Source of the DNA: Moniliella sp. 'wahieum'
Taxonomy: Eukaryota
Reading direction: 5' to 3'
Assembly: GCA_003971905.1 (NCBI GenBank)
Contig: RSEE01000009.1
Location: 992,001 to 1,056,000, forward strand
DNA: 64,000 bases
Shown here: positions 8,798 through 50,900 of the stretch, piece after piece
Numbering within the stretch: the first letter of the stretch is position 1
How the letters are laid out: each line of letters begins with the position of its first letter
Translations under genes and position numbers: made by a program
Notes under the pieces: generated by a model
Database searches by the model: none
Told to the model about the DNA's origin: nothing
The model's input: only the letters and a program-made list of their open reading frames with translations

Positions 8798-9038
8798 TTT
8801 TGATTTCGTTTTGCTTGGGTGCCCGGGTCCCCCCTAAGGCCCGCCCAGCCCCCGGCCTGGGGTTTTGGTTTCCCGGTTGGGCCGGGTTGGGGTTGGGTTG
8901 GCCTGGATTAAATTGGCACCATCTATCATGTATCATGTACCATGTAACACTATCGATGATCGAGTCTCGATCATCGCCCGTCTCTGTCTCGCCACTCTGC
9001 TTCTGCAATGAGATCCACTTTGAATTTGTGCAGGAGAG

Positions 9039-9195
9039 TGTCGGCCTCGCTACTACCACAGAATGTGAGCACTGAACGTCGTATTGACTAAGAAGCTTCT
9101 GCGACTGACTCGTCCAGAAGACTGGTGCGAGCTCGGAAGAATGAAGCTGACTCACGTGACTCAGGGTCCGCGCGGTCCTAGGACGGATGTCAACA
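9039..9195 (-). repeat. 3' LTR of copia copy 1
   Basis: TGTCGGCC...TGTCAACA, matching the other three LTRs apart from a few 1-bp differences. Confidence 0.97.
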
Positions 9196-12100
9196 CCCCC
9201 CCGACCGGAGGGCCCAGTCATGTGGACTGGATCCATCTCCTCGACGCGGAGTTGAGCAAGATGGCTTGTCAGGGCGGGACGGCCGAGAGGCTTGGTGAGG
9301 ACGTCCGCTGGGTTCCTTTCGCCGGGGATGTGTACAAGTATGGCCTCGCCCGATCCACGTGTTGCCGTACATTGTGGTACCGGATCTTCAGCTCTCGGAG
9401 CTTGCCGTGCTGCCAAATTGTGGGCGAGATCGACCAGACTTATTGTCGCAATACCAATGAATGGGTGTACCCTCGCCGATGGCCCCAAGCTCGATCATGA
9501 TGTTCTTGACATAGTTGGCGTCACCAGTCCATCATATCCTGCCGTATATTCGGCGGCGGCGGTACTGGTAACGCTCTTCGGCTGAAGAATGGATCGCCAC
9601 GACACCGGCACACCGTACACCATCAGTAGGCATCCAGATGTGGAGCGTGCCTGGATGGGATCTCCCGCCAAGTCGGAATCTGTATACAGCGCAATGGCCG
9701 GTGCATCTGATGTTGGGGTCAACCTCAGGCCCTTTCCTCGAGTATGGTACAGGTAGCGAAGGAAGTCATCGACTGATGATGATGTGCTGCGATGGGTCGG
9801 CGCAGCGGCTCTGCTGAGGGCCGTGATAGCGAAGAGGGAGTCAGGCCGGCCCATTCGTGCAGCCCACAGTCCCGATCCGATCTTCCCCTGATATGCCTTG
9901 CGCAAGGCTGGGAGGGATGGGGGTTCAGGGTCGGCACGGGGCGGTATCATCCGTACGGGATGTGGGAGAGTCCGGATCCACGGGGCTTTGATGTGGTGCT
10001 TTGCCACCACTTCCTCGATGAACTTTGGTTGGCTTCAGGTACAGCTCCCCACCGATCCGATCGTATTGGCATCCCAGGTGGTAGTGAAGGGGACCGTTAC
10101 CACGAACATCAATGTGTGTGTTTATCTCGGCCATAAACTCCTCGTACTTTTGTGTGACTTGCATGCGAGGAGCAGATCGTCGGTTGTGGACCGCCAGGAG
10201 GATCTGCTCACCCGGTGGTGCAGCGCGCACGAACAAGCAGGGCTCGGTCAAGCTTTGCGTGAAGCCGAGCTTGTCACGCAGCAGGTTCCGGATGTATCGT
10301 GCCCAGTTTGCTCCGCTCTGATGTAGCCCGATAGACTCTTCTTGAGACGCCACACGCGACCACCCGCTTCGGGGAAGTAGGGGGGTGGGCGGATGTAGAC
10401 TGCTTCTTCGAGGGGGGCGTTCAGGTACGCTGCATTGACGTCCGCCGAGAAGAGGCCAAACTTATACTTCTCGGCCAGCACGACGAGGGTCAGGAGGGCA
10501 GGTGTGCGCACCGATGGTGCGAACGTCTGGCCCCAAGTCTCGGCCGGCGATTTGTTGGTGTCCCCCGCGACAAAGCGCGCGCGGTGGCGCAGGAACCGGC
10601 CCTCGGCGTCCGTCTTTGTGGTGGATGCGCCATAGTCCTATGAGGATTTGTGCACCCGGTGGGGGGTACGTAGCCTCGTAGGGCCGTATCGCGCGAGTGT
10701 GGCCACCTCCGGCCATAGCCTGCTTGACCATGGCAAAGGAGGGGTGAGTCTCGAGACCCTTGAGCGTTGGGAGCGAGGGGTACGCCATCCTTGGTGAGCT
10801 GAACCGTGTCCGGGTGGATGGGTGCGCTGAGAGCAGTCATGGCGGCGTATTCGGGGTTGAACTGTGTCGGCAAACGGGGGGGCGGATTTGTGTAGGGGGG
10901 CGGGCGATGCCGATCTCTGGTGCGGCGCAGTGGGGGCGTTGGCGGCTGCAGCACGAGCATGGTAGGTCGTGTCGGTGGGGTCGTCAGCGATTGGGAGTGG
11001 TGCAGGTCGAGGGAGGTGCGGGTGGTGCGCTGGCGGAGGGGGTAGCGGCGCGGAGGGGGGGTGGTGGGAGCGGGTGTCTGGGGTGTGGCGGCGGTTCGGG
11101 GCATGGGTGCTGCCGCGGCTGGCGGAGTAGGGTTAGCGTCTTTTTCACTGTCGATTTTAATTTGAGGTGATTTGGAGATGTCGGGTGGGAAGTGGTCGGG
11201 GTGGAGATGGGGGTAGATGGCGTTGCCCCATTTGTACGGTTTCGACCAGCGGTAGGTGAAGGTACCCAGGGATGGTTGGTATGTGGCGAAGAGCCATCCC
11301 TTTGATCCGCGCTGATGGTGGTATCCTACCAGCATACCTTCCTCTGCCCGCGCGCTGAGCTTGTGCTCGCGGCGTGACTCGGGCAGATGGAGGTATGCAA
11401 CGCGGCCAAAGGGTTGCATCGGTAACGAGTATGCGTGGCCTTTGTATCGCTCAAATCGCGATTTGTTGTCTTCCCCGGATGTTTTGAGTGGCATTTGGTT
11501 TTGGGTGAAGCACGCAGCGTGGAGGCTGTGTTCCCACCAGTCCGACGTCGGAAGACCTGTACCCAAGAGCAACTGCCTTGCACGAGTCGTTATGGTTCGG
11601 ATGGCACGCTCAGCCACACCGTTGCTAGCACTCTGCCCCGGGATTGTCCGTTCTGACGTGATGCCTTGCTCGTCCAGAAAAGGTTGCAGTGCGCTTGTCA
11701 ATTCGGGGGCGTTGTCCGTGCGCAAAGTCCGCAGCAGTCTGTCCGGGCCGTAGCGTTGCTCCCGCAATATGAGGTTCCGCAGTTCCTTCGTTGCAGCGCC
11801 CTTTGTCGGGATCGCTGTGGTGAAGACGTACCGCGTGAAGTCATCAACGGCGACGAGGGCGTATCCGTGCCCCATGCCGGTTACCCGGGGGAGGTCTACT
11901 ACGTCGACGTGGAGGACCTCGAAAGGTCTTTTGGATCGGAGGCGGTCCCGGCTCGGATGGGGCGATGCTGTCGCTAGTGCCACCGCGCATGTTGGGCAAT
12001 CCCACTCTGAACGACAGAGGGAGATATGCTTGGCTGTGACGCGGAGGCCTGCGGTTTCCGATCGTGTAAGCCAGGGGAGGAGGTCGATGGCTGCGTGGTT

Positions 12101-12619
12101 CCAGCGTTTGTGGGCTTTAGAGACGTGGTCCAGGGCCAGGGATGCTGCGAGGGAGTTTGGGGTTGAGGGTGGGTCGGCCGGTTTGATCGGTTTGGTCGCC
12201 ATGGCCCGCAGGGGTGTGGGTGGCGTTCGCGGGTTGTGTAAGATCGTGAATTGATAGTCACTGCCGGTTACTTTTCGTAGGGTGGATCCTGGGTTACCAA
12301 GCCAGATACCCTTCTGGTGTGGGGCGAAGTATGATGCGATTCCGGTGTTCGACAGGTGTGCTACACTGACGAGATTTCGGCTGAAACGGGGCATGTATAG
12401 GCTGTTGGGGAGTTTTATCTCCATTTGGTGTCCTCCTAAGCATCGGATACGGATTGTGGCCGTGCCTCGTCCTTCCGCCTTTACATGTGTCCCGTTAGCA
12501 ACCTCTATCTCGTCGTCGCAAGGGGTCATGGATGTGAAGACGGATTTGTCTTTCCAAATGGATGGGAATGCCCCACTGTCATATAATGCCCGGATGATTC
12601 GCATTTCGCCCCCGAGTTC
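9088..12619 (-). CDS. pol: copia pol (protease, integrase, RT, RNase H), copy 1; RT/RH half frameshifted
   Basis: PR LYDSGA. IN zinc finger HKRWNH..CPTC, core VDVVD/VDD/TDNAPE/NGVAERA, SH3-like KLSARAEEGMLVGY. RT DVNAAYLNAPLEEAVY, RLKKS, TEPCLF. RNase H YTDSDLAGD, STAAAEY, NPADVLTK. Confidence 0.93.
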
Positions 12620-13867
12620 CTAGTAGTCAGCTGTGCCCGCATCAACGTCAATCACTTCAGACTCGGGAGAGCTCGCTCTCTGAGCGACGTGAGCGTTGGC
12701 TCGGCCTGGGTTGCGCGGAGGGACAACAGGTTTATTAGACGTCGCGCTGCGCCAGGGTTGGTTGGTGCGGTCTTGCCCCTTGGTCTTTGTGTCCGCGAGG
12801 TTGTCGTCGCCGGCTTTGCCCCCGCTGGAGTTTTTTCCCCCGCTGGTGGGTCGTCCCCCGCTGTCGGGTCGAGTCCAAGGCGTTCCTCCGTTGACCGGCT
12901 TGCCTCCGTTTCTCTTCCTTTCTCCACCGGGATACGTGGCGGCTGGTATGTCCATCACGGCCTGCCGTAACTTGTCTAGACTCGAGCGCTCTTCACGCTG
13001 GCGAATGCTCATGTCGCGTAAGCCGAGTAGGATCCCAGTGCGTTCCTGCTCTTCCGTAAGTGGGATGCCCGCTCGCGTCAGGCTTGCACTGATCTCTTCC
13101 ATGTAGTCGAGGTAGTCTCGACCCGATCGGTTTCCTTGGTCGGCCGAAAAGTAGCGAATGAGTAGAGGCCCTCTGTTTGCGGTAGGCGTATATCCATACC
13201 GCTGACGCAGCATGTTCAGCGTGTCCTGGGTGCATGATATTTCGTGGTGGGTGCGGATCGTCCGGAAGAGGGTTGACGGCATGGCTTCCCTAAGAAGGTT
13301 GTGCAAGCGTCTGTCGAGGTCCTCGGTGAAGTAGCGGGAGCTGCGACCATTCTGGACGACGTCGCTTGCGTGGGGGTGGGCATCTGTTATCGCGAAGAGA
13401 AATTCGTCTTCCCAAGCGCTGTAGGCGGACGGGTCTTTGTTCAGATCAGGCCACTTGATATTCTTGGTGGGAGACTCGCGTAGTGATCTGTAAAGGTCGT
13501 ACTCGGGTCGCGAGGCTGCGCCTGTAGGTGCCCCCAAAGTTGCGTTGGGTTGAGTTTCCATTTGGTGGATGTTTTGCACCACAAAATTCGTAGCCCGTCG
13601 AACCCAGTTTGTCGTGATAGACGTAGGTTCGTCCTTCCATCCAAGCCACTCGGCTCTGTCGTGTATAGCTCTGTTGATCTTCTCTTTAACGACATCGATG
13701 TCGTTCGTCTTCTTGAACCACAGGTGCGCTTCGGCGCAAAGCATCATGAGTTCCTCGTTGTCGGTGCCAATCGGTGGCGGATCGCGACCGGTTGGTGTCC
13801 AGTAATCGCGCTTGTTCACCATTGTGGTGTCGCTGACCGAGAGATCGGTGTTAGCGTTGGCGCCCAT
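12620..13867 (-). CDS. gag: copia gag, copy 1 (415 aa, ends in a UAG in frame with pol)
   Basis: Intact ORF starting 52 nt after the 5' LTR, with a helical capsid-like region (YSAWEDEF..LHNLL..LRQRYG..YLDYMEEI..ILLGL). Confidence 0.9.
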   Translation of the reverse strand: MGANANTDLSVSDTTMVNKRDYWTPTGRDPPPIGTDNEELMMLCAEAHLWFKKTNDIDVVKEKINRAIHDRAEWLGWKDEPTSITTNWVRRATNFVVQNIHQMETQPNATLGAPTGAASRPEYDLYRSLRESPTKNIKWPDLNKDPSAYSAWEDEFLFAITDAHPHASDVVQNGRSSRYFTEDLDRRLHNLLREAMPSTLFRTIRTHHEISCTQDTLNMLRQRYGYTPTANRGPLLIRYFSADQGNRSGRDYLDYMEEISASLTRAGIPLTEEQERTGILLGLRDMSIRQREERSSLDKLRQAVMDIPAATYPGGERKRNGGKPVNGGTPWTRPDSGGRPTSGGKNSSGGKAGDDNLADTKTKGQDRTNQPWRSATSNKPVVPPRNPGRANAHVAQRASSPESEVIDVDAGTADY

Positions 13868-13919
13868 GGTTGTGGGTGTAGTTTTGGCCAGCTCAGGGAT
13901 GCAGATAAGGATGTAACTC

Positions 13920-14079
13920 TGTCGGCCTCGCTACTACCACAGAATGTGAGCACTGAACGTCGTATTGGACTAAGAAGCTTCTGCGACTGACTCGTCCAGA
14001 AGACTGGTGCGAGCTCGGAAGGAATGAAAGCTGACTCACGTGACTCAGGGTCCGCGCGGTCCTAGGACGGATGTCAACA
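13920..14079 (-). repeat. 5' LTR of copia copy 1
   Basis: 160 bp, TG...CA, followed on the + strand by TSD GAGAG. Confidence 0.97.
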
Positions 14080-15369
14080 GAGAGTCAAAAAAAGCAGAAA
14101 ATAGTGTTGATAGTCCAAAGCCATCACATGTCACAGCTTTTGCCCATTTGTCCTCCACGTCTATTACCGTGGAGAGTACAGCATACGGTGGAGAAGAAGG
14201 GCTATAACCCGCTGCAGTTGGCGATCATCTGCTTGTACTGGGAGCTGTTCTCAAGGCTCGGCGCTGCTCAGACAACTTGGTTTGGCCATCTTGCAGTGTT
14301 TTCCTCCCCGCCGCATCTCGTCTTTTTCCTCACAGCTGGCTCATTGAACCCATGGGTGTACCGGATGGAGCGCACAATCTTGGGGGTCGGGCATGGTCTA
14401 GAAGCAGAATATAAAGTGGAAGAGGTACAGAACAAAAATTGAAAAAAGCACACTGGCTCTCAAACCAATGATGCAAAGGCTGCGAGTGGTTTGTTTAGCC
14501 ATGCAAAGGCTGTGTGGTTTGTTTTTTCCTACCCGGCAAGAAGCATGTTGATACGTTGATACGTTGAACGTTGATCGATGATCGATTGCCTCCACTAGTG
14601 ACGACGCCCTACTGCGATCCCTCTCCCCGACCCCATGGGGCCGGTACAGTGCCGGTGCGCAGGGCCACCCATAAGCGCTAAGCGCTAAGCGTATATCCCC
14701 CACGTGACCGGTGATCGGTGACCCCACTGCAACAGGCAGCCTCTGCAAAACGCCAGGCCGTGCCCTACAGTGCCTCTGCGCCGATTTATGAATGTCGATG
14801 ATGGATGATGCATGATGGATGATCACACCCGAGTTCTCGAGTGCATGACTGCTCTAGTGCTCGTCGATCACTTCGCGATCGACCAACACCGCTAGTGCGG
14901 ACACACTCGGCGACGACGGGGCCAGCCATGCGGGCAGTGTCGTGTGCATCCTGTTGGTCCCTGGAACTGCACAATGCTTGAGCTGCCCCCCTGCTGCTTC
15001 CGTGCAGGAAGAATACTGTCCTGCCATCCTGCCGCGCGTGCCTAGTGACTTGTTGAATTTGCGCGCTCTTCTAGGCCTGTGTGGGATTTGCACCCAGGGA
15101 CTGCAACCCAGGGACCGTGTCCAACGTCCTCCATTCCCAGCCCTGCCCAGTTCTGCGCAGTCGCTACCCCTGCGCAGTCGGTTATGCCTTTGGCACATGG
15201 TACAGGCCTCAGCCTCAGCCGCAGGTGTGTCAGGTTGGTTTCTGGGTTACAGGCCCAACGTAGCTGACCCAAACCCCCGCTCTCCGCCGTTCCTGTCTTG
15301 CTTCACCACCACCTTCTCTTCTTAATACCCTGCTCGGGTAACGCGGTAACGAGCCATCCCTCTGCCACC

Positions 15370-16300: not shown

Positions 16301-18481
16301 ACTAGTCTGACACCGCCACCGCCTTTGCTCCTCGTGACTCGGGCCTGTCGCATCACATCTACATCCCTGCCTTGGCTGTCGTCTACCCACGCTCATTTAG
16401 TACCCATTACTGTCTCTCACTGTGCTACCTGTGCCCGATCCGCTCCGGACGGCCACTCCTTCCCGGTTCCGTTGGGTCGCTATCGCGTCTCACCAACTCG
16501 AGTTCGTTCATTATCTGGTCTCTTTTGTTTCTTCAAGGCATTCGTCACCTTTGTGTATGGGTACGCCCGCCAGTTCTTCGTTTTTGGTCTTCAGTCTGTT
16601 GGGCTGGCCCAACGCTGCCTGCATCTTTCGCTCTCAGTGTACTTGGGGCTTACGATTTACCTCCTGGCGAAGTCGGCTACAGGTTCCGCTTTCTCGGTTC
16701 CTTCGCCTTCAGTTTGATGGCGCTCTGCGCGATCGATTATGTGTTTTAGTTGGTTTATTGCGTTTATTGCGGTTCTTTCTTCTCTTCTTCAATTCCCTCT
16801 TTTCTTGCCTCTTGATGGGGCTTTTCTGCTTTTTTTGTCCTTTCACTCTTCGTTCGTCGCCCATACATTAGGCAACCTGTTTCCCGTGATGGCTTCCTCC
16901 CTGTCGCCATAGGTACTTAGTACGGTGCTTTTTCTACTGCCCCCATTTCCATCCTATGCTTTGTTGCACTCGAAGCCCAAATGAAAAAAGTTCCTTCGAC
17001 GGACTCCTGAGGCTTGCCGGATGCCTGGTGCACTGATAGATGCGCGTCCCCCGGTTGCAACCGACTATTCCTTGCTCAATACCGCAATTATAGTGTCCGT
17101 CGTTGAAAGATCAGCTTCATTTTTATGCGACGGTAGGATTTTCGTCGAACATCTCTCGTGTCCAAAGCAGCTGGTGGATGCGGCTTGGGCCTGTACCCTC
17201 AGCCTCAGTCTCAGGTGCATTACGCCAGCGTGCCCTGTACAGATCATGGCACGGCTAAAAAGCCAACAGAGCTGCTGAAGTTTGCTTCGGTCAGCTTCAC
17301 GACGCAAGGTAGTTCAACACGTCGGTATGCGTTGTGCTTGATATGAGTTGTCGGCACGCGGCCTTGTGTGTTTGTCAAGTTTCTGCGTAATCGGTTGATT
17401 GTTATTAGTTTGGGGCGACAAAAGGCCAAGGACGGGGGCCTCCTGGATTCCCTTTGACAGGGCGATGCGAGTGTACGCATTATACCTGGCAGGGTGGACG
17501 CTTACGAATTGGCGTGCTTGAGCATTCATCGTGCAATTGGTGCCTGGGACGACGGGTGCTGGTGTAGGAGGTGAGGCTCTCTCTCTGTCTATGGACATGA
17601 ACGACAGCCGCATGTGTTGGCGCAACGCGTGGGCCCGGTGGGAAGGAACATGCTGTCGCCTGTCACGTGTTCGGGCACGCTTGATCACGTGTTGCATGAG
17701 CGCCATGTGGCGCCTGTCGGGGCTGGGAGATCGGAAGCACGCAGGAGGGGCAGGAGTGGTTCGAGCGCCGCGGGGTCCCCAGGGCTCCGCACAGGGTGCA
17801 CAGGCTAGCACAGCGCCAGTCGGCGCCACAGCAACGTGCGGCGGTGCGGACATGAAATTTCTGCGCTGCGTTCCCGTACTAACTGGCATGCGGCCTGCTG
17901 CGGCCTGCTGCTGCTGGCATGCGGCTGGTATGCGGCTTAGCTAACCACGGCTGGCGCTCTGGCCGACCGCAGCCACTGCCTGAGGCTCAGGCGCTGAATA
18001 CTCCGACTGGCTGAGTGCGTGGCTGAGCCCCAGCGCTGACGCGCTGACATGGCCTCAAGAGCCGCCGCCCGGGAGCAGCCCCAGGCCCCAAGGCGCACAC
18101 GGGTCCGAGTGACGCCCAAGGCACCGCAGAGCGCACGGCGTATACATGCACCACGCTCTGGCGCTGGGCAGCTGAGCTGAGCACTGCCTGCTGCTGCCGC
18201 TGCTGCGTGGCTGCGTCGGCCGGTGGTGCCTTGGCTGGATGCGTGCGGGTCACTGCACCCGTGCCCGCACATTTAAGCTTGCAGCTCCCGCTCCAGCCGC
18301 ACGCCTGCTGGCCCAACCAGTCACTACTCTTGCTCCGCCTCCGTCCGTGCTGCCTGGCCCACCACCTCCTCTTCCTCCGCCTCCTCCGTCTCCCTCTCCC
18401 CCCCCCTCCTCTTCTCCCTGCTCCCCGCCTCTCTCGCCCCTCCTCTCACACCGCCTCGTCCTCTTCCTCCCTCTCTCCGCC

Positions 18482-20137
18482 ATGGCTGCGCCTGTCGCCG
18501 ACCCCACCTCTGTCGCCGCCCCCACTTTCCCCCCCGCCCTGGCCATCCCTGCATCACCTGCCGATGCCGCTGACTCGGACTCTGCCTACACCCCAGACTC
18601 GCATCCCCCCGACCTCGACCCCACAACGCCTCTCAGCCTGCGCGCCCTCGTTACGTCCAAGGAGGCCGGCATCATCATTGGCCGTGGCGGCCAACACGTC
18701 GCTGAGCTGCGCGAAAAAACGGGGGTCAAGGCCGGGGTGAGCAAGGCTGTACCGCATGTACACCGCGTGCTTACCGTTTCAGGCACCCTTGAATCGGTTG
18801 CGGAAGCATTCCGTCTCATTGCCCAGGCCTTCATTGATACTGCCCAGCTGGCCACCCAGCCCGCCACCACCTCCACCTCATCCGCGTCTGTCCCAAGTCC
18901 TGCCACGGCAGAGACCGACCTGGCTCCTCCGTCCCTTGACATTGAATCGGTGCCCCAACCCCCTCCCGCATCTCTTGACGATAAAAACGCCGAGGTGGAT
19001 GCTGTAGCGGCAGATGCCTCTTCCCCTTCGGCTGCAACTTCAGACACCCCAGCATCCTCCCCAGCAACTCGATCGGTGCTCTCTTCGACAGGCGTGACCA
19101 CGATCCGTTTGCTGATTTCGCATGCACTCATGGGTGCTGTGATTGGCAAGCAGGGCATCACAATCAAGGCCATTCAGGAAACGTCGGGAACGCGTATGGT
19201 GGCGACCAAGGGCATGCTACCCAACTCGACCGAGCGTGTTGTGGATATCACTGGCACTGCCTCGGCGATTGAACATGCCATCACAGACGTGGGCAAGTAC
19301 ATTGCTTCGGACTGGGAACGTGCTCAAGGCACTGTCTTTTACGAGCCGGACTCGCCTGATGGAGCAGCAGCGCTGGTCGCTGGACTGCCCGTCGGCGTTT
19401 CTCCCCTTGCGTATGGCGGGCGCGGGGTTGGTCCCCGTCGTTCGGGCAAAGGCCGGGGAAACGAGTATCCAGCTGCTGCCGGTATGCCAGGTCTTCCGCT
19501 GGCCTTCCTTCCCCTGGTTATGGCTCCCTGTCTCCCATTCCGACCACCCTTGCTGGCGGCGTCGACATGCTGGCGTCGGCAGCAGCCATCCCTATGCTGC
19601 GCATGTAGCATCGATGCAGCATCAGCGCGTTTTTGCCCCGACGGGCATCCCGGCCGGATCGGAAACCTCACCGGCAGCGTAGCTACTGCGGCATCACAAG
19701 GTGCAGCCGTCGCCCCCGGCGGAGGCTTTGTTGCTGGTGGAGTGACGGGTCAAGGGCCACTGACAGCGCCTGCGGTGATTGATGCAGCTAACATGCGCAC
19801 ACAAAATATTGCCATCCCCCGACATGGTTGGCTGTATCATTGGCAAGGGAGGCTCGAAGATTACTGAGATCCGTCGTCTTAGTGGCTCGCGCATTTCGAT
19901 CGCCAAGATCGCGCACGATGAAAGCGGGGAGCGTCTGTTCACCATCCAGGGAACACCTGCATCAAATGAGAAGGCTCTCTACTTGCTGTACAACCAAGTA
20001 CGTGTTTCCCCCCCTTTTGGTTTGGTTCCTCGCTTGGGGTTGCCTGAATATTGACCCATACTTGGCTGCCTAGCTTGAAACCGAAAAGGAGCGACGGCAA
20101 GCGGCCGCTGTGGCACAGGACCAGCCACGACGCCTAA
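18482..20137 (+). CDS. Triple-KH-domain RNA-binding protein (Rnc1/Pbp2/hnRNP-K-like)
   Basis: Three GxxG KH motifs: IIIGRGG, AVIGKQG, CIIGKGG. Intron 19998-20073 (GTACGT..TAG) is followed by LETEKERR. Stop position is approximate because of indels. Confidence 0.9.
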
Positions 20138-29512: not shown

Positions 29513-31669
29513 TTAATCATCTTCCTCCCCTTCTCCTTCATCAGAATCCTCGATAGAAACCAACACCCATTCACCCTCAACATCCCATCGACTGCCTCCA
29601 GCCGAGGCCGACAGGTACTGGATGAAGTGCATCACGCCCCATCGCGAAGAACAATGTTGAGTGAGTTGAACTGAGGCGTGAGGCTGAGCAGCACACCATC
29701 AAACTCCTCGTCGTCTTCGTCCTCGTCCTCGTCCTCGTCCTCATCTTCCTCGTCATCTTCCGCATTCGTGTTTTCAGCCTGGGCTTCGTCGGCCACACCC
29801 GCACCCGCCTTCTTGTTTCCACTTCCGTACACGGCTGGGTCATCCTCCTCCTCAGCAGGGGCCATAAAGCATTCCCATCCACCCACAACGCCTGTCTCCC
29901 ACTTGGTCCGCAATTCCTTGATCTGTTTGGCGGAAAGCGAGCCAGATGGAGTAGCCGCCTTGGCCTTTTTGGCCGCCAATCCCTGTTTCTTCTTCGAAGG
30001 CCCTCCACCAACAAGCGAGTCAGCGACATTGGGAGTCAAGCCCAAGTTGACTTGCAGCACAGCCTCCTCTTCGTCCTTCTTGGCCAACGTGTAGTCCAAG
30101 CCGGGGCGGAAACGACGAGCCCAAAGCGGATAACGGGCCGCCAAAGGAATCAGTTGGGTCAAATTGGCCAACAAGGCTCGGAAAGCCGGGGAGGGGAACA
30201 AGACCCCACGCACCAACGCGATCACCTCCTCGGCTGTCTGGGGCAACTGGGCAGGCAAAGGTGGGTTTTCTCCCGCCAGCGTTTCGGGAACTTGTGAGGC
30301 ACCCTGGTCGGCCTTGGTGACCAGCGACAAGAAACGGTGGTGGTGCGGAGGGCCCTCGATCGTCCACTCGTCCGAAGTGCCCTCAGCCTTGCCAGTACCA
30401 GTCAGATGAGGCTGAATAGTGCATGCCTCGCGCAACTCTTGCCCCGTCTTGGTTGCACCAGCGGGCTTGTTGTCAAACCAACGGAAGCCATCGCGGCGGT
30501 CGAGCTCGACGAGACCTTTGGACAGAATCTTGGCCAACTCGGGACGCAAAAATTCAGCCAGGAGCAAATTGCTCTCGTCGCCAAACTGATCAAACAGCTT
30601 GCTTTGCACCTTGGGGTTAAGATAGGCCTGATTGATAAAGTAGGTGAGGAACTTGCGGTCCGCATACGATAATTGCGCCCCGGGGACAACAGTGCTTGTC
30701 ATCTCCACCTCCTCTGCACCAGCATCCTCCTGGGCCTTGGCGGGAGCAGCGTCGGGATAAGGCACAAAGGGACGGGTACGTTTTTGGCTCACCAGGCTCT
30801 CGGCCGACGAGTACTCTTTGCGCGCTTGTTCTTCTTGCGCTTCGACCTCCGCCGAGAACCCCTCCTCATCCGGCAGGGGGCGATGGAACCAACCAGAGAT
30901 ACTGAGCCGCGACACTTGCGGGTGCACCACCTCCTCCACCGAATGAAAGGAGTAGCCCGGAATAACCGGGAAAAAGGCAAATTGGTTCCAGAGCGGCGGG
31001 TGGACCGCGGTCGGCACAGCTTCGGGCTCATGTGCCACACTGACCGGGTACAGCTCCAGAGCACCGCCGTACTCTGGCTTCCATTCCCGGTCTGGCAAGT
31101 AGAGGATGAAGGAGACACGCCGGGTCGAGATCACGTCGCTAATACGAGCACAGCCTAGTCAGTACTCAGTACAGCCGTACAGCCCGCCCGAGAGGGGTCC
31201 AAGAGAAGGAGGACATACTCGTGATTCAAAAGGTGGCATCCATCACGGTAGTCGTTGATGCTCATGTCCTTCTTTTTTTCAGACAGAGGCCCGCACCCAG
31301 TGACACGCTGGATGAAGGAGCGGAACTCCTTGGAGAAGAGGCATCGCGCACCTGGAACACACTCTTCAAGCGTTCTTGTTCCGCGACAGGGAGGCCATCC
31401 AAGTTGGCCAGGTCACCCGTTTGGTTCACCTTGTAAATGTCGGTCTCCTTCTCAGTGAAGGAGAGTTCCTTGACAATCTCGTCCCGCGCCGCTCGCAGTA
31501 GAGCGTCGTTGAGGAGCGGGCGGACAACACTGTGCTTGTAAGGACCACTGGTAGCGCAGCCGGCTACGTGGCCTTGGGAAAGCTCGCTGTCCGCCTTGAA
31601 CAGATCGGGCGAGGAGAAGCAGGCAACCACTTCGGGGCGAGGCACGAAGGATGTGGAGTTGCCAGACAT
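29513..31669 (-). CDS. TPA1: Prolyl 3,4-dihydroxylase Tpa1/Ofd1 (2OG-Fe(II) oxygenase)
   Basis: [39 protein letters not shown] with the HxD motif split by intron 31139-31218. [25 protein letters not shown]-terminal [24 protein letters not shown]. Confidence 0.93.
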
Positions 31670-33547: not shown

Positions 33548-34101
33548 TCTATCTCACGGCCAATGATCGGGAGGTGTTTTTGCCCTGCCCAGCAACGTTG
33601 GTGAATAGGGTTGAGGCTGAAGTCCACCGCCTAGACCATCCATGGTGCAATAGGCTCGCCTTGAAGCTTGAGCTGGTTGCTATTCGGATCTCTGTGGCGG
33701 CTGCTCGTTTTGTATTTCTGTTTTCCCCTTGTTGTCTTCTGGGCCAATTGAGTCCATTCTTTTTGCCCCCCCACTTGTACCAGCTGCTGACTTTGCATCG
33801 CCATACGACAACCACCTTGTGGAACGAAGAAACGACATTAATGCTGTCCCGTAGCAATGTGCATCCCCCGTAGAAGATGGGCTACGTCTTGCGGCTTCGT
33901 TCCATTGCCCGCAGAGAGGCCCGGCTGTCGCAAACCATGGGAAATCCGGGTCCCCTGCCCCAGGTCTTGGTGTTTCAGGCCGCAGAGAGACAACGTGGAA
34001 GATTACCTAACGCAGTGGTGCCACCTGGATGGCAACTTGGGCACGTCGCTCTCTCTGTGCCCACCTATCCACACCACCCTGCCCCAACGCACATCACCAC
34101 C

Positions 34102-34951
34102 ATGTCCGTCACTTACTTTGACGGCCTTAAGAAGGCACGTGTTTCCCATCCTCCACAAATGCAGGTCTGCGATCTAACTGGTTTCTGCGCTTTAACAGTC
34201 TTTTGCGGATGTTCCCACACCCCTGGCGTCGACACGTCCGCCTTTTTGGAAGCGTCCGAAGGCCTGGTCGCCCTTTTCGACCTCCTGGGTTCCTCGGCCT
34301 TCTCTATGGTGCAAAGTGACATGAACGGGAACATCACCGTATGTACATTGTCCCCCCTCTCCTGTTCCCGTCACCAAGCTAACTGGACCACGACCGTGCA
34401 GAAAATTCGCACTCGTCTGCTTGCTGCCCCAGACCAATCCGCCGCCACGTTGGAGTCGCTCTTGCAGAACGAAGGAAAGGCCGGCGAGTCAGGAGTAAGC
34501 GTCCTGCATCGCAAGGTCTGCTTTGGCTCCTACGGTGCGTAGTGTCGATCCAGTGCTTGTTGCCGATGTACTGACCTGCACTGCGTTTAGTGGGCTCGAG
34601 TTCACTGCAGCCGCGCTGCGCCGTTCGCTGGATAACGCTGGTGAGGAATGAGTGTGAGTTTTACCAAGGCGTACGAGGCCACTCTGCGGCAGTACCACTC
34701 GTTTGTTGTCCGCCCCGTCTTTAGTCTGGCCATGAAGGCGTGTCCCTACCGGGCCGACTTTTACGCCAAGCTCGGCTCCCCCCAGGAAAAGGTCCACGAG
34801 CAGCTCTCTGCTTGGCTCCAGGGCCTGGAGGTGATCGTCGCCCCTCAAGCAATTCTTTCAGTATGTTGATTGGCTCTCTTTGGTTTTCATGTACACGGCG
34901 GGCTGACTTGTCATTCTCTGCAGGGCTGGCAACTGGGCAAAGGGGTTCTAA
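34102..34951 (+). CDS. het-c2: Glycolipid transfer protein (GLTP / HET-C2 family)
   Basis: TYFDGLKK|SFADVP, FDLLGSSAFSMVQSDMNGNI, GLLWLLRGLEF, AYEATLRQYHSFVVRPVFSLAMKACPYRADFY. Introns 34135-34198, 34339-34401, 34535-34590 and 34861-34923. Confidence 0.92.
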
Positions 34952-37900: not shown

Positions 37901-38029
37901 GATCCCTGGCCGTTATGGGTGCAGCCGGGTAGTGCAGCAACAGATGCATCGGCTGGACTACCCACTTGTCAAGCTACGTGCTTCAAGCTAGCTTCGAGTT
38001 GAACGTGTACTGAACGTAATCTCTACTCC

Positions 38030-38191
38030 TGTCGGCCTCGCTACTACCACAGAATGTGAGCACTGAACGTCGTATTTGACTAAGAAGCTTCTGCGACTGA
38101 CTCGTCCAGAAGACTGGTGCGAGCTCGGAGGAGGAATGAAAGCTGACTCACGTGACTCAGGGTCCGCGCGGTCCTAGGACGGATGTCAACA
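38030..38191 (-). repeat. 3' LTR of copia copy 2
   Basis: TG...CA, matches the other LTRs. Confidence 0.96.
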
Positions 38192-41100
38192 CCCCGCTGA
38201 CCGGAGGGCCCAGTCATGTGGACTGGATCCATCTCCTCGACGCGGAGTTGAGCAAGATGGCTTGTCAGGGCGGGACGGCCGAGAGGCTTGGTGAGGACGT
38301 CCGCTGGGTTCCTTTCGCCGGGGATGTGTACAAGTATGGCCTCGCCCGAGTCCACGTGTTGCCGTACATTGTGGTACCGGATCTTCAGCTCTCGGAGCTT
38401 GCCGGTGCTGCCAAATTTGTGGGCGAGATCGACGACAGACTTATTGTCGCAATACCAATGAATGGGTGTACCCTCGCGATGGCCCCAAGCTCGATCATGA
38501 TGTTCTTGACATAGTTGGCGTCAACCAGTCCATCATATCCTGCCGTATATTCGGCGGCGGCGGTACTGGTAACGCTCTTCGGCTGAAGAATGGATCGCCA
38601 CGACACCGGCACACCGTACACCATCAGTAGGCATCCAGATGTGGAGCGTGCCTGGATGGGATCTCCCGCCAAGTCGGAATCTGTATACAGCGCAATGGCC
38701 GGTGCATCTGATGTTGGGGTCAACCTCAGGCCCTTTCCTCGAGTATGGTACAGGTAGCGAAGGAAGTCATCGACTGCTTGATGATGCTGCTGCGATGGGT
38801 CGGCAGCGGCTCTGCTGAGGGCCGTGATAGCGAAGAGGGAGTCAGGCCGGCCCATTCGTGCAGCCCACAGTCCCGATCCGATCTTCCCCTGATATGCCTT
38901 GCGCAAGGCTGGGAGGGATGGGGGTTCAGGGTCGGACGGGGCGGTAACGTACGGGATGGGAGAGTCCGGATCCACGGGGCTTTGATGTGGTGCTTTGCCA
39001 CCACTTCCTCGATGAACTTGGTTGGCTCAGGTACAGCCCCACCGATCCGATCGTATTGGCATCCCAGGTGGTAGTGAAGGGGACCGTTACCACGAACATC
39101 AATGTGTGTGTTTATCTCGGCCATAAACTCTCGTACTTTTGGTGTGACTGCATGCGAGGAGCAGATCGTCGGTGGACCGCCAGGAGGATCTGCTCACCGG
39201 TGGTGCAGCGCGCACGAACAAGCAGGGCTCGGTCAAGCTTTGCGTGAAGCCGATGTCACGCAGCAGGCGGATGTATCGTGCCAGTTTGCTCGCTCTGATG
39301 TAGCCCGTATAGACTCTTCTTGAGACGCCACACGCGACCACCCGCTTCGGGGAAGTAGGGGGGGGGGAGGTGTGTAGACTGCTTCTTCGAGGGGGGCGTT
39401 CAGGTAGCTGCATTGACGTCCGCCGAGAAGAGGCCAAACTTAATCTCGGCCAGCACGACGAGGGTCAGGATGGCAGGTGTGCGCACCGATGGTGCGAACG
39501 TCTGGCCCAAGTCTCGGACGATTGTTGGTGTCCGCCCGCGACAAAGCGCGCGCGGTGGCGCAGGAACCGGCCCTCGGCGTCCGTCTTTGTGGTGATGCGC
39601 CATAGTCCTATGAGGATTTGTGCACCCGGTGGTGGGTACGTAGCCTCGTAGGTGCCGTATCGCGCGAGTGTGGCCACCTCGTCGGCCATAGCCTGCTTGA
39701 CCATGGCAAAGGAGGGGTGAGTCTCGAGACCCTTGAGCGTCTTGGGAGCGAGGGGTACGCCATCCTTGGTGAGCTGAACCGTGTCCGGGTGGATGGGTGC
39801 GCTGAGAGCAGTCATGGCGGCGTATTCGGGAGGTTGAACTGTGTCGGCAAAGGGGGGGCGGATGTGTCAGGTAGGGGGCGGGCGATGCCGATCTCTGGTG
39901 CGGCGCAGTGGGGCGTGGCGGCTGCAGCACGAGCATGGTAGGTCGTGTCGGTGGGGTCGTCAGCGATTGGGAGTGTGTGCAGGTCGAGGGAGGTGCGGGT
40001 GGTGGCAGGCGGAGGGAGGGGGGTGGGGGGGGGTGGTAGCGGCGCGGAGGGGGGGTGGTGGTGGGAGCGGGTGTCTGGGGTGTGGCGGCGGTCGGGGCAT
40101 GGGTGCGCCGCGGCTGGCGGAGTAGGGTTAGCGTCTTTTTCACTGTCGATTTTAATTTGAGGTGATTTGGAGATGTCGGGTGGGAAGTGGTCGGGGTGGA
40201 GATGGGGGTAGATGGCGTTGCCCCATTTGTACGGTTTCGACCAGCGGTAGGTGAAGGTACCCAGGGATGGTTGGTATGTGGCGAAGAGCCATCCCTTTGA
40301 TCCGCGCTGATGGTGGTATCCTACCAGCATACCTTCCTCTGCCCGCGCGCTGAGCTTGTGCTCGCGGCGTGACTCGGGCAGATGGAGGTATGCAACGCGG
40401 CCAAAGGGTTGCATCGGTAACGAGTATGCGTGGCCTTTGTATCGCTCAAATCGCGATTTGTTGTCTTCCCCGGATGTTTTGAGTGGCATTTGGTTTTGGG
40501 TGAAGCACGCAGCGTGGAGGCTGTGTTCCCACCAGTCCGACGTCGGAAGACCTGTACCCAAGAGCAACTGCCTTGCACGAGTCGTTATGGTTCGGATGGC
40601 ACGCTCAGCCACACCGTTGCTAGCACTCTGCCCCGGGATTGTCCGTTCTGACGTGATGCCTTGCTCGTCCAGAAAAGGTTGCAGTGCGCTTGTCAATTCG
40701 GGGGCGTTGTCCGTGCGCAAAGTCCGCAGCAGTCTGTCCGGGCCGTAGCGTTGCTCCCGCAATATGAGGTTCCGCAGTTCCTTCGTTGCAGCGCCCTTTG
40801 TCGGGATCGCTGTGGTGAAGACGTACCGCGTGAAGTCATCAACGGCGACGAGGGCGTATCCGTGCCCCATGCCGGTTACCCGGGGGAGGTCTACTACGTC
40901 GACGTGGAGGACCTCGAAAGGTCTTTTGGATCGGAGGCGGTCCCGGCTCGGATGGGGCGATGCTGTCGCTAGTGCCACCGCGCATGTTGGGCAATCCCAC
41001 TCTGAACGACAGAGGGAGATATGCTTGGCTGTGACGCGGAGGCCTGCGGTTTCCGATCGTGTAAGCCAGGGGAGGAGGTCGATGGCTGCGTGGTTCCAGC

Positions 41101-41613
41101 GTTTGTGGGCTTTAGAGACGTGGTCCAGGGCCAGGGATGCTGCGAGGGAGTTTGGGGTTGAGGGGGGTCGGCCGGTTTGATCGGTTTGGTCGCCATGGCC
41201 CGCAGGGGTGTGGGTGGCGTTCGCGGGTTGTGTAAGATCGTGAATTGATAGTCACTGCCGGTTACTTTTCGTAGGGTGGATCCTGGGTTACCAAGCCAGA
41301 TACCCTTCTGGTGTGGGGCGAAGTATGATGCGATTCCGGTGTTCGACAGGTGTGCTACACTGACGAGATTTCGGCTGAAACGGGGCATGTATAGGCTGTT
41401 GGGGAGTTTTATCTCCATTTGGTGTCCTCCTAAGCATCGGATACGGATTGTGGCCGTGCCTCGTCCTTCCGCCTTTACATGTGTCCCGTTAGCAACCTCT
41501 ATCTCGTCGTCGCAAGGGGTCATGGATGTGAAGACGGATTTGTCTTTCCAAATGGATGGGAATGCCCCACTGTCATATAATGCCCGGATGATTCGCATTT
41601 CGCCCCCGAGTTC
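38080..41613 (-). CDS. pol: copia pol, copy 2; frameshifted
   Basis: Same PR/IN/RT/RH motifs as copy 1, in ORFs 40969..41598, 39812..40978, 39465..39815, 38385..38975 and 38080..38355. Confidence 0.92.
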
Positions 41614-42860
41614 CTAGTAGTCAGCTGTGCCCGCATCAACGTCAATCACTTCAGACTCGGGAGAGCTCGCTCTCTGAGCGACGTGAGCGTTGGCTCGGCC
41701 TGGGTTGCGCGGAGGGACAACAGGTTTATTAGACGTCGCGCTGCGCCAGGGTTGGTTGGTGCGGTCTTGCCCCTTGGTCTTTGTGTCCGCGAGGTTGTCG
41801 TCGCCGGCTTTGCCCCCGCTGGAGTTTTTTCCCCCGCTGGTGGGTCGTCCCCCGCTGTCGGGTCGAGTCCAAGGCGTTCCTCCGTTGACCGGCTTGCCTC
41901 CGTTTCTCTTCCTTTCTCCACCGGGATACGTGGCGGCTGGTATGTCCATCACGGCCTGCCGTAACTTGTCTAGACTCGAGCGCTCTTCACGCTGGCGAAT
42001 GCTCATGTCGCGTAAGCCGAGTAGGATCCCAGTGCGTTCCTGCTCTTCCGTAAGTGGGATGCCCGCTCGCGTCAGGCTTGCACTGATCTCTTCCATGTAG
42101 TCGAGGTAGTCTCGACCCGATCGGTTTCCTTGGTCGGCCGAAAAGTAGCGAATGAGTAGAGGCCCTCTGTTTGCGGTAGGCGTATATCCATACCGCTGAC
42201 GCAGCATGTTCAGCGTGTCCTGGGTGCATGATATTTCGTGGTGGGTGCGGATCGTCCGGAAGAGGGTTGACGGCATGGCTTCCCTAAGAAGGTTGTGCAA
42301 GCGTCTGTCGAGGTCCTCGGTGAAGTAGCGGGAGCTGCGACCATTCTGGACGACGTCGCTTGCGTGGGGGTGGGCATCTGTTATCGCGAAGAGAAATTCG
42401 TCTTCCCAAGCGCTGTAGGCGGACGGGTCTTTGTTCAGATCAGGCCACTTGATATTCTTGGTGGGAGACTCGCGTAGTGATCTGTAAAGGTCGTACTCGG
42501 GTCGCGAGGCTGCGCCTGTAGGTGCCCCCAAAGTTGCGTTGGGTTGAGTTTCCATTTGGTGGAGTTTTGCACCACAAAATTCGTAGCCCGTCGAACCCAG
42601 TTTGTCGTGATAGACGTAGGTTCGTCCTTCCATCCAAGCCACTCGGCTCTGTCGTGTATAGCTCTGTTGATCTTCTCTTTAACGACATCGATGTCGTTCG
42701 TCTTCTTGAACCACAGGTGCGCTTCGGCGCAAAGCATCATGAGTTCCTCGTTGTCGGTGCCAATCGGTGGCGGATCGCGACCGGTTGGTGTCCAGTAATC
42801 GCGCTTGTTCACCATTGTGGTGTCGCTGACCGAGAGATCGGTGTTAGCGTTGGCGCCCAT
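41614..42860 (-). CDS. gag: copia gag, copy 2 (one apparent 1-bp deletion near 42562)
   Basis: ORFs 42435..42860 and 41614..42642 join to give the copy 1 Gag sequence. Confidence 0.9.
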
Positions 42861-42912
42861 GGTGTGGGTGTAGTTTGGCCAGCTCAGGGATGAGCAGATA
42901 AGGATGTAACTC

Positions 42913-43070
42913 TGTCGGCCTCGCTACTACCACAGAATGTGAGCACTGAACGTCGTATTGACTAAGAAGCTTCTGCGACTGACTCGTCCAGAAGACTGGT
43001 GCGAGCTCGGAAGGAATGAAAGCTGACTCACGGACTCAGGGTCCGCGCGGTCCTAGGACGGATGTCAACA
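42913..43070 (-). repeat. 5' LTR of copia copy 2
   Basis: TG...CA, followed on the + strand by TSD ACTCC. Confidence 0.96.
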
Positions 43071-43908
43071 ACTCCATATTCAATCTCTACTCCATATTAA
43101 AATGGGAAACGCCCTGTGCACTTTTTATATAAGCCTCACGTAAGCCACCGGGGGCGCAGCCAGCCACGCCAGCCAGCGCGTATCGGTGATATTATGTGGG
43201 TTCCAGGGTGGAATGGTGAACAGGGGGAACGGTGGCTAAGGTGGCGACACAGCACCAGCCCCAGCTGACCGGGCCGTAGCCCCGGTGGTCCTCGTATATC
43301 TCAACAGTGACTGTGCAAGCGATCGTTGAACGTTGAACGTTGAACGTAGTCAAGACGAACAAAATATCGCCCATGCACGAAGGATTATGCAGATGCATTA
43401 TGATCGGACGTATTGTGGGCTCGAGTCGATGACTGCCACGTTCATCGAGGCCACCAAGACCCCGTCACAGTATAATAGGGGTGTGACGTGTGACAGAGAT
43501 CCGGGACTGTTGTAGAGATCACTCGATCTGAGTGCAACAGCAGGCAACAGATGAAGATCTCCCAACAGTAGTGAGCTATAGGACACATAGGACAGTCACT
43601 AGTCATGACCGATGAGATCGATGATCGATTGCCGATTTCGATTAATACGCGTTACATGTTACGACCAGAATGACCGCGATGCCGGATAACCTCACATGCG
43701 TGTACTCCAAACTCCTATAATAAGATGCTCTTACTGCGACAGTATCTGGGCCAAAGGACGGTGACCATTGTGGATCGGTAACGCCGGTCGTTAATAGCAC
43801 AAGTTCAACGTCCACAAGCAGAGAGTGCGCACCTGGATACCACTCCTATAGTCGTTACCACCATCTTCTTCAGTTTTCGCCTTGACCATCCAAACCCGGG
43901 ACGATTAC

Positions 43909-47922: not shown

Positions 47923-50900
47923 ATGCCCCTCCCCACCGAGCAGACCGACTTTGTCCGTAGTCATCTGCTCCCCGAGGACACCACCGCCCAGGGCTACTGG
48001 GCACAGCGCGGGCGTGCCGGCCTCGGCGGTCTTGCGCGCGACCAGGGCATATCCCACCGTTCAAAGGTATCCGTCCCTGGCACACGCCGCTTCGACCGCC
48101 AGCTCAACACCTCTCTTCGCTCCCATGCGTTCATGCAGGACGATGCCGACCTGTCCCCCTACGCAAAGTCCCTACTTCAGCGCGAGGAAGCCAAGGCCAA
48201 GGCCTGCGCCGATGCTGCCGCCCACGAAATCCGCCGTGCCCATGTGCCTCCTACGCCCATGGCTACCACTTCTACCAGCACCCCACACCTCATCCCTCCT
48301 CCCAACACAGAGTTCATTCTGTCATCTGCTCGTCACCCCTCCCCGCTTACCTCGTCCAACCGTCTTCCCTCCGCTGCTGAGAAAGAGGACGGGCGTTCTG
48401 TTTATCACCCTACCGCAGTCATCCGACACTGCCGGCCTACTTCCGGCCTCAGTAGCCCATTATGATCGACCCTTCTCATCTACCTTGCGTGGAGATCCTC
48501 AACCCGGGATCTCGCCGCCACCCCCCTGGCCCATCTTCCTTCGGTGGGCGAACTCATTCCTTCCTCCCTACCAACACCCCATCGGATTCATTCTCGGGCC
48601 CCACGGCTCGTGTAACCGATGACTACTTGGCCTCCCGCTGTGCCAGTATGGCTGCTGGGTTGGGATGGCAGAATGTCGTTGACATCTCTCCTGGTGACCG
48701 CCTGGGCCCTGGGTTGCACCATGACGGCTCCGAAATCCGCCAGGTACACTCACCGGGGGCCAACGAGCCCATTTGGGATATTGATCGCCCGCTGGAAGTG
48801 GTGCGCAAATTGGGCGAAGGGAGCTACGCGTGTGTCTACTTGGTGAATGAGGTATGCCCCGTAGCCAAGAGTCAACACAACCGCCCACCGCGTCAATTTG
48901 CACTCAAGTGCTTGTGCAAGCGCGACCTATCTCCTTACATTATGTCGATGCAACGCCTTGAATCATCCATCCGCCAATCCCTCCCTCGTCACGACAACAT
49001 TGTCACTCTTTACTGCGCATATGAGACCCAGGATTGGTTTTTCCTCCTCTTTGAATATTGCCCCGGCCAAGATCTATTTTATTGGTTGGAACAGGCTCAC
49101 GAAACGCTGGAATACGAAACTGAAGATGGGTCCTACGTGCCTGGGATGGCAGAGTCACTTCAAGGAAACGCCACACCCCGTGAGCCACTTCTCTTGGCTA
49201 CTACCTCGGGCTTTTCCATCTTGTCCTGGCAACGCCTGCATCTCATTAGCCATATGTTCCACCAAATGTGCTTGGCCGTCCAATTTTGCCACGATCATGG
49301 GGTTGCACACCGGGACTTGAAACCGGAAAGCTTCATTGTGGAGGACCTCCGCCATCTCTCTTCCAACGCTGATGAGTCCGAACAGGTGATTGTCAAGCTT
49401 ACCGATTTTGGCCTTTCCACCCATCAGGAGCGCTGCCACGACTTTGTCTGTGGCAGCAAGCCGTACATGTCGTATGGTAAGTTGGTATATCTTTTGACCC
49501 TTCCAGCAAAGACTAACATTTTTTTAGAATGCTGCAATGAGACGTCCACGTCGTTCGACCCCAAGTCAGCCGACGTATGGTCCCTGGGCATCGTTCTGCT
49601 CAACATGCTATTTCACCGTAATCCCTTCCAGGAGCCGTGCGCAGATGTTTGTCCCTCGTTTGCCGCCTTTGAGCGAGATCCAGTGGCTTTTCTATTGTCG
49701 GCTTTTGACGGACTGACACCCGCTGTGGCATCCTACTTGGCCACTCACGTCTTCAGCAAGATCTCAAATGGCCCTCGCGTTTCGGCCGCCGAGTTGGGCG
49801 CCTGGGCGGCCAACTTGAGTGATCATTTGGGCATCTCGGACCCCCGGCAGCGTCCCACCTTGTCCCGTGGCGCTAGCATGGGCATCACTGCTCCCCTCTC
49901 GCGCACCACCTCAGGGCCTGCCTACTCCTGTCCGCCTTCCGTCTCATCCGCCTTGCCCCAGACGGTGGAACACCTATCGGGTTTGTCCTCCACTCTTCAT
50001 GTGGCACCTCACGACTTGAACACCGCCGAGAAGGAGGGACTCAAGCTCCCTCTCTCTGTCAATCCCGCCTCTCGGTTTAATCTGGACAAGGGTTTTGCCC
50101 GCTCTTCCCGTCCGGAAGATGTGCCCTCCATCTTCACCCGTCGTGGGGCACAGGGCAAGTTGACAGTCGCCACGTCGCACGCTGAACCGGTGGGCCCTCG
50201 TGGGGTGACGGCCATGCTTGGATCCCAAGAGGAGGCGCTCGATTCCTCGGACGATGAAGTGGCTTCCATTACAAGCTCGGCCAAGCCCCGTCGGCGCAAG
50301 CGTGGCAACCGTAAAGGCTCCGTCGCTTCCTGTGCACGGGAGGCAGCTCACCCCCCAGCTGTTGTATCCCATCCCACCCACGCCCCTCCTCCACTCCCCT
50401 CTGCAACGGGAGCGGGAACGGGACAGGGACAGGGACAGGGACAGGGGGAGAAAGCACGCAAAGCGTTACTACCGGCGAAGCCATTGCTTCCCAGCGAACA
50501 ACCTCTTTCGTGGCGGGAGCGCACCCAGCCTACCCGGGCACCACCCCGCGGACCAGCATGTCAAGCATGCGATCCGGCCTGTCGGATGACCAGGTGAGCA
50601 TGTACTCAACTGCGTCGGCTCCTGCCGAGGTCATTCGTCGTTCGCATGAATCGGCGATGAAACCATTTCGGCCTGCTGCGGTTCTTCAGCCCATTTCCGA
50701 ACAGAGGGAGAAACCCAAGGCCATGCCAGGCCAACTGGATGCATCTTTCTTGGCGGACATGTATGGTGGATCATCCAAAGTGAGCCGCCCACATGGGGTG
50801 CGGTCGATGGATCGTCGGCTGCGGTCGGGCATGGATCCCTATACCACCTCCCTCCCTTTCTATGGGAGGCAGCACGGGAGCACCACTCTATGGACCGTGC

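Follow-up and report, generated by a model that had tools for sequence, protein, structure and literature searches.

Ty1/copia retrotransposons in which gag ends at a stop codon in frame with pol are rare, and the two cases already in print for fungi, Tca2 and VdLTRE5, both use UGA. Tca2 (pCal) of Candida albicans has the order gag-UGA-pol in one frame and makes Pol from the full-length RNA (PMC2194720, PMC7175516). When 300 nt of its junction were placed in S. cerevisiae, readthrough did not exceed background, and an internal promoter of low strength was also reported (PMC2194720); by these accounts, the mechanism of bypass remains unsolved (PMC2194720, PMC7175516). VdLTRE5, a Ty1/copia element of Verticillium dahliae present in two copies, has 159-bp long terminal repeats (LTRs), a gag UGA and no CARYYA motif, and its authors describe the layout as very rare (PMC3441728). 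We analyzed a 64,000-nt stretch of contig RSEE01000009.1 of Moniliella sp. 'wahieum' (assembly GCA_003971905.1, positions 992,001 to 1,056,000 of the forward strand; hereafter the window), which carries two copies of a Ty1/copia element whose gag and pol share a frame and are parted by one UAG. Judged from the sequence, the stop is probably a built-in, selected feature of the family, and the most likely route past it would be readthrough, to which we give a probability of about 0.42.

By description, the window element appears to resemble Tca2 and VdLTRE5 more than murine leukemia virus (MuLV). It shares with Tca2 a place among fungal Pseudoviridae, in-frame gag and pol, and a single stop before the protease. 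Tca2, compared by description only, is 6.4 kb long with LTRs of 280 bp, and has UGA, a purine-rich spacer and a predicted pseudoknot, whereas the window element has UAG, no supported structure, LTRs of ~160 bp and a length of 5.0 kb. VdLTRE5, likened here by description only, differs in its UGA and its ascomycete host. In MuLV, readthrough of the gag UAG (~5%, PMC2194720) depends on a spacer with a pseudoknot downstream of it (Wills 1991, via PMC10275272); the window element has the same UAG-G and a stop shortly before the protease core, but no pseudoknot is supported in it. The fission-yeast Ty3/gypsy elements Tj1, Tcry1 and Tosmo1-3 have an in-frame gag stop in a conserved GAA-TGA-CT, and Tj1 is stated to require its stop in order to transpose (bioRxiv 10.1101/2022.12.06.519325); they belong to another superfamily, and the window element reads UAC-UAG-GA. 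A different likeness is offered by hypovirus CHV1, with its UAAUG, and by SART1, in which a long upstream ORF (open reading frame) ends and a nearby AUG starts the next on one RNA (PMC10275272; PMC2699510). In these two, stop and start overlap and rely on defined RNA elements, whereas in the window element they are 15 nt apart and no such RNA element was found.

In word searches of an open-access library, which does not include the main survey of gag-pol recoding (Gao et al. 2003), copia elements with a UAG, instances from basidiomycetes and LTR elements that use stop-restart were all absent. The original prediction for this locus had called gag-pol stop readthrough rare and had named Tca2 as an instance of it. 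The claim of rarity needs revising: readthrough in Tca2 was not found when assayed (PMC2194720), and VdLTRE5 is a second fungal copia element with a gag UGA (PMC3441728). How LTR elements control the ratio of Gag to Pol is a classic question, and few copia elements carry a gag stop in frame with pol. Another, unrelated and apparently young family, whose UAG lacks a visible signal and has a possibly conserved AUG close by, would be a compact test case, which could separate readthrough, restart and removal of the stop in RNA. Were the stop merely a lesion, the finding would be unremarkable.

The stop codon that separates gag from pol

On the minus strand, the stretch around 12640-12578 reads GCT GAC TAC TAG GAA CTC, continues through GGG GGC GAA ATG CGA ATC ATC CGG GCA TTA TAT and ends with GAC AGT GGG GCA, the in-frame TAG lying 15 codons 5' of the protease active-site codons DSGA (positions in Table 1). 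In copy 2, the 281 bases around the TAG recur identically at 41474-41754. The ORF that ends at the TAG of copy 1 is listed as 415 aa at 12620-13867. The frame past the TAG of copy 1 is open for 709 codons (10493-12619) and holds a 704-amino acid ORF from the ATG at 12604. This first AUG lies 15 nt past the UAG and 8 codons before DSGA, and the Pfam match to Pol_BBD (residues 13-93 of the post-stop ORF) starts after it. The stop is in the short linker before the Pfam protease core, where recoding sites of Pseudoviridae lie, and the layout, with one stop between in-frame gag and pol just 5' of the protease, is that of Tca2 and VdLTRE5. No other stop was present in the 415 + ~625 codons (~1,040) of copy 1, and the TAG was also the only substitution-type lesion in them. 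By our own estimate, a random nonsense mutation would fall within 20 codons of the boundary in ~3% of cases.

The original prediction had read the minus strand in this way, with the TAG at the boundary of gag and protease, in the 'clean half' of the element and in both copies. The sequence bore this out, and over 11112-14079 the copies are set apart by 7 small indel events but by no substitution. It had further argued that two insertions with different target-site duplications place the stop in the transposed template; the duplications are GAGAG and ACTCC, and the stop is present in the transposed template. The suggestion that the stop is a candidate for recoding held in part. The stop is probably a designed feature because of its position, the lack of other stops and the relative P0152, whose pol ORF starts at the protease; the two copies do not count as independent tests of conservation. 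Among the long ORFs of the window, 21 have TGA as their stop, 10 TAG and 4 TAA, counted on open frames and not on established exon ends, and reassignment of UAG in the nuclear code is unlikely on general grounds.

Relatives and the start of pol

Relatives were read as proteins only (165 retrieved, the DSG locatable in 92; P numbers are our handles). Trees of the protease-integrase (PR-IN) region were built with FastTree (133 rows) and, in a quick run, with IQ-TREE (36 rows). The only close relatives are P0002 (51% identical) and P0152 (46%), which formed a robust group with the window element (95 and 100 in FastTree, 98 and 98 in IQ-TREE); the clade of the window element and P0152 had 100 in FastTree and 98 in IQ-TREE. 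Both proteins are colinear with the element through the end of RNase H (tblastn). P0002 starts inside the integrase and is uninformative on the junction. P0152 is an intact protease, integrase, reverse transcriptase and RNase H (PR-IN-RT-RH) protein of 1,210 residues on a 5,549-nt contig; it begins MPANLPAQHDSGA, with Met 9 residues before DSG(A). A more distant family, P0007 and P0168 (both 1,070 aa, 31% identical), shares the motif DSGxxPS and begins MPRSPTVLDSGT, with Met 8 residues before DSG. At least 214 residues precede DSG in 75 of the 92 copia proteins, a start at most 21 residues before it was seen in 5 of the 92, and fused copia proteins have no Met at 8-9 residues before DSG. A stop within 87 codons upstream of the protease was found in none of 15 distant metagenome copia loci in which the protease could be located, 5 of which ran to the contig edge. 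On sequence comparison, the argument that the stop is conserved would rest firmly on P0152 and loosely on the P0007 family.

Single-ORF copia proteins align across the stop. P0016 does so unbroken (BLASTP), and P0073, a fused protein of 1,579 aa, shares ES..VDVDA just upstream of the stop (P0073 ~340-360 against window 12623-12670). The sense stretch of P0073 up to its DTGA is nearly as long (18 residues) as its counterpart in the window (19), and P0073 may be the nearest single-ORF relative of the element. Because of these alignments, the frame on both sides of the stop can be taken as the ancestral polyprotein frame, and a readthrough product would recreate the ancestral polyprotein.

Of the 8,000 candidates scored in a profile search (alignment A2), none but P0152 and two distant proteins were recovered. 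The metagenome scan yielded 80 loci, all 23-38% identical and no close relative, and scans of viral and prokaryote genomes gave no matches. The only named protein matches were from Ustilago hordei (27% identical) and carry little taxonomic weight. On the sequences searched, the copia family of the window is isolated.

State of the two copies and of the assembly

The copies are 97.8% identical over 5,091 columns (self-BLAST), with 52 indel events between them in total. The clean half, 11112-14079, comprises 2,968 bases; the remainder, 9039-11111, has 45 indel events and 30 substitution columns, mostly beside indels. On either side of the stop, the first differences, at 12170 and 13570, are extra 1-nt deletions of copy 2 in the integrase part of pol and in gag, respectively. 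RVT_2 fragments were found by Pfam in two other frames. The indel-dominated pattern of differences, which the four LTRs share, does not look like neutral decay.

Short-read contigs were available from X1, an unrelated metagenome run (share of words 0.13), over 9103-9874, 11557-11749 and 12012-12264, short of the junction; runs X2 and X3 gave no contig on the element. In the clean half they showed 0 differences in 193 bases (11557-11749) and 1 in 253 (12012-12264). Over 9103-9874 they mostly had copy 2's state at the places where the copies differ, and copy 1's at two. Since these contigs mostly show the other copy's state, and since the lesions are indels clustered in one half, the breaks in the RT-RNase H frame and the single-base deletions that copy 2 has in gag and in integrase are probably noise of the assembly consensus. 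In the 3' 2 kb of each copy (9039-11111; 38030-40100), the differences have the look of noise that arose locally when long reads were assembled over a repeat, and if so, gene models in these intervals are untrustworthy as given. A further X1 contig, record 2 (5,089 letters, depth 30), is much deeper and matched weakly in the RNase H region only (9366-9406, 9532-9585); it is as long as the contig recorded for P0002. There may be a related copia family in a more abundant organism of the X1 sample.

Proposed readthrough of the UAG

In the mechanism that we propose, the UAG would be where gag truly ends in a Ty1/copia family that is young and has moved recently, gag and pol being separate in-frame cistrons by design. 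Most ribosomes would stop at the UAG and yield Gag, and a small fraction would pass it on the full-length RNA and go on to make PR-IN-RT-RH, the likeliest route being low-level readthrough by a near-cognate tRNA. The Gag-Pol fusion would be colinear with the ordinary copia polyprotein and would then be cut by the protease. Readthrough is tentatively preferred because the in-frame, colinear layout fits it and because a Gag-Pol fusion solves packaging. Below it we rank, in descending order of probability, restart at the downstream AUG, a defective lineage, removal of the stop in RNA and an assembly artefact.

The UAG is followed by G (UAG GAA), and the +4 G of a MuLV-type signal is therefore present. 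The original prediction had matched this context to the MuLV class and had suggested pseudoknot prediction; only the +4 G agreed. The local signals otherwise weigh against readthrough. The hexamer after the stop is GAACUC, not the CARYYA of the tobacco mosaic virus type (motif per PMC3441728), and folding of the 126 nt downstream does not surpass that of shuffled sequences (z +0.99; 169 of 200 fold as well). The best H-type pseudoknot in a crude scan scored -9.9, a value equalled by 12% of 300 shuffles. A nine-pair helix bracketing the stop, CUCCCGAGU/ACUCGGGGG, was rejected, being matched by 20% of 1,000 shuffles and by 28% of 100 native control positions. The bases before the stop are AC and not AA, and AA upstream of a stop is reported to promote readthrough in yeast (bioRxiv 10.1101/2022.12.06.519325). 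The Tca2 junction, placed alone in S. cerevisiae, gave no readthrough (PMC2194720).

The remaining points on that side concern the copies and the relatives. The RT frames are broken in both copies as assembled, and the two copies are one observation of their progenitor because they are nearly identical. P0152 and P0007 are known as proteins; the break before their pol could be a frameshift and the start a gene-caller choice. P0007 joined the clade with 97 in FastTree but with only 65 in IQ-TREE, which used the better model and in which the fused, long-branched P0073 was closer (87) than P0007.

Two other candidates were tried and set aside. The upstream fold (z +1.47) was no better than controls. 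Hopping from UAC to an in-frame UAU 13 codons on was dropped; by our own estimate, a Tyr codon occurs within 15 codons by chance about one time in three.

Possible restart at the downstream AUG

Termination-reinitiation or internal initiation at the AUG past the stop, which would yield a separate Pol starting MRIIRALYDSGA and no Gag-Pol fusion, ranks second and is doubtful. It is nevertheless a serious rival to readthrough because the AUG has counterparts in P0152 and the P0007 family, whose Met precedes DSG by 9 and 8 residues (by 8 in the window element), and fused copia proteins are without a Met at the equivalent place. The AUG is the first start-type codon past the stop, has a purine at -3 and is followed by the Pfam protease core. 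On the other hand, every ORF caller would report a Met as first residue, and that of the relatives is weak evidence of conservation. A UGGGA-type upstream motif is associated with termination-reinitiation, and none was found in the 140 nt before the stop. Nor was there significant local structure downstream, upstream or bracketing the stop, or any tethering element, and Pol made on its own would have to enter the particle by some other path. Fungal viruses and the non-LTR element SART1 are known to use stop-restart (PMC10275272; PMC2699510), but the known sites overlap or nearly touch (UAAUG), whereas the gap here is 15 nt. The original prediction had listed reinitiation at this ATG among its alternatives; it gains weight from the starts of P0152 and P0007 and loses some by the gap and the missing tethering element. 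From the sequences compared, it seems similarly doubtful that Pol is a separate protein throughout this small copia clade, restarted at a conserved AUG ~8 codons before DSG.

Other explanations of the stop

Ranked next, and unlikely, is a defective lineage, in which a chance nonsense mutation in a master copy was copied in trans by intact elements or spread by gene conversion. Two near-identical copies that amount to one observation, no readthrough signal found at the stop, RT frames broken in both copies as assembled (with gag and integrase also broken in copy 2) and the commonness of stops in fungal LTR elements (PMC3248453) are all consistent with it. Yet the stop lies exactly at the gag/protease boundary as the sole one in ~1,040 codons, and P0152, a robust relative, has a pol ORF bounded at the equal place. 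The other lesions, moreover, are nearly all indels in one half of the element, where the short-read contigs suggest assembly noise.

Removal of the stop in RNA is improbable. A minority of RNAs would then encode a fused Gag-Pol, after splicing of a mini-intron ending CTGAC-TAC-TAG or A-to-I editing of UAG to UGG, the latter known for premature stops in some filamentous ascomycetes. CTGAC and the TAG after it are similar to the branch point and acceptor of fungal introns, as the original prediction had pointed out in proposing a tight 3' splice site, and an in-frame GT lies 36 nt upstream. A usable donor is lacking, however: GTGATT, the only in-frame one in reach, has no G at +5 and implies an intron of 36 nt; with GTCTGA, at 43 nt, the frame would be lost; and the other in-frame GT..G sites lie 984 and 1,218 nt upstream, where splicing would take out most of gag.

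An artefact of assembly or consensus that hides a sense codon is highly improbable, even in a noisy assembly of a repeat with its many indel events between copies, because the TAG is substitution-type, lies in the cleanest part and is identical in both copies, whereas the noise consists of indels, no substitution difference occurs in the 2,968 bases around the stop, and the short-read contigs at 11557-11749 and 12012-12264, which do not span the stop, showed 0 and 1 differences.

Structure of the element

Both elements are Ty1/copia (Pseudoviridae) retrotransposons (Table 1). Pfam matches in copy 1 are in the order Pol_BBD (45.6 bits), rve (39.6), SH3_retrovirus (32.6) and RVT_2 (54.6, in a shifted frame), all above cut-offs; this is the order protease, integrase, reverse transcriptase and RNase H, with a copia-type reverse transcriptase (RVT_2). 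As in copia elements, the LTRs are direct repeats of ~160 bp with TG..CA ends and a 5-bp target duplication, and differences among the four LTRs are confined to small indels and adjoining columns. Copy 1 has the ends TGTTGACA...GGCCGACA. A G-run lies 5' of the 3' LTR in each copy, and GAGTTACATCC, from reading the sequence only, directly follows the 5' LTR, at the place of a candidate tRNA primer-binding site. The two copies are separate insertions, not a segmental duplication, because their flanks and target duplications differ.

Table 1. Positions of the copia copies and their parts in the window
Feature	Position	Strand	Basis	Remark
Copy 1, Ty1/copia LTR retrotransposon, 5,041 bp	9039..14079	-	self-BLAST, alignment, Pfam	
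Copy 2, 5,041 bp	38030..43070	-	self-BLAST, alignment	target duplication ACTCC 38025-38029 / 43071-43075
Target-site duplication GAGAG, copy 1	9034..9038	.		partner 14080-14084
5' LTR, copy 1, ~160 bp, TG..CA	13920..14079	-	self-BLAST, alignment	
3' LTR, copy 1	9039..9195	-	self-BLAST, alignment	preceded by polypurine run GGGGGGG
gag-like ORF, 415 codons	12623..13867	-		helical body ~residues 38-305; Gly/Lys/Arg/Pro-rich tail
In-frame UAG ending gag, copy 1	12620..12622	-	sequence, ORF table	
Identical in-frame UAG, copy 2	41614..41616	-	sequence	
First in-frame AUG 3' of the stop	12602..12604	-	sequence	context GAA AUG C
Protease active-site codons D-S-G-A	12569..12580	-	sequence, ORF	
PR-IN part of pol	10745..12619	-		open; colinear with P0152 and P0002 up to motif QLTKDGVPLAPN
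RT-RNase H part of pol	9196..10744	-		split over shifted frames in both copies

The gag-like ORF

The ORF upstream of the stop would be gag chiefly by its position. It had no Pfam match even at E 10, no homologues were found among proteins of 228-727 aa, and BLASTP against the gag-bearing P0011 was without significance. An AlphaFold2 (AF2) model was all-helical and of low confidence (predicted local distance difference test, pLDDT, 39.5). Feature matches in the ESM Atlas to a Ty1 TYA Gag cluster (0.90) and to Retrotran_gag_2 clusters (0.88) serve as leads only. The ORF starts Met-Gly (MGANANT; window 13861-13867). N-myristoylated Gag proteins have Gly at position 2 and usually Ser or Thr at position 6; the gag-like ORF has Gly at position 2 but Asn at position 6.

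Genomic setting

The two insertions are in the same orientation, 29 kb apart. Host-type ORFs at 18239-19867, 29632-30702, 33877-34542 and 48462-50597 lie around and between them, encoding a KH-domain protein, an Ofd1 C-terminal domain, a glycolipid transfer protein and a protein kinase. Because such ORFs flank and separate the elements, the insertions are in a gene-rich region and not in a repeat island.

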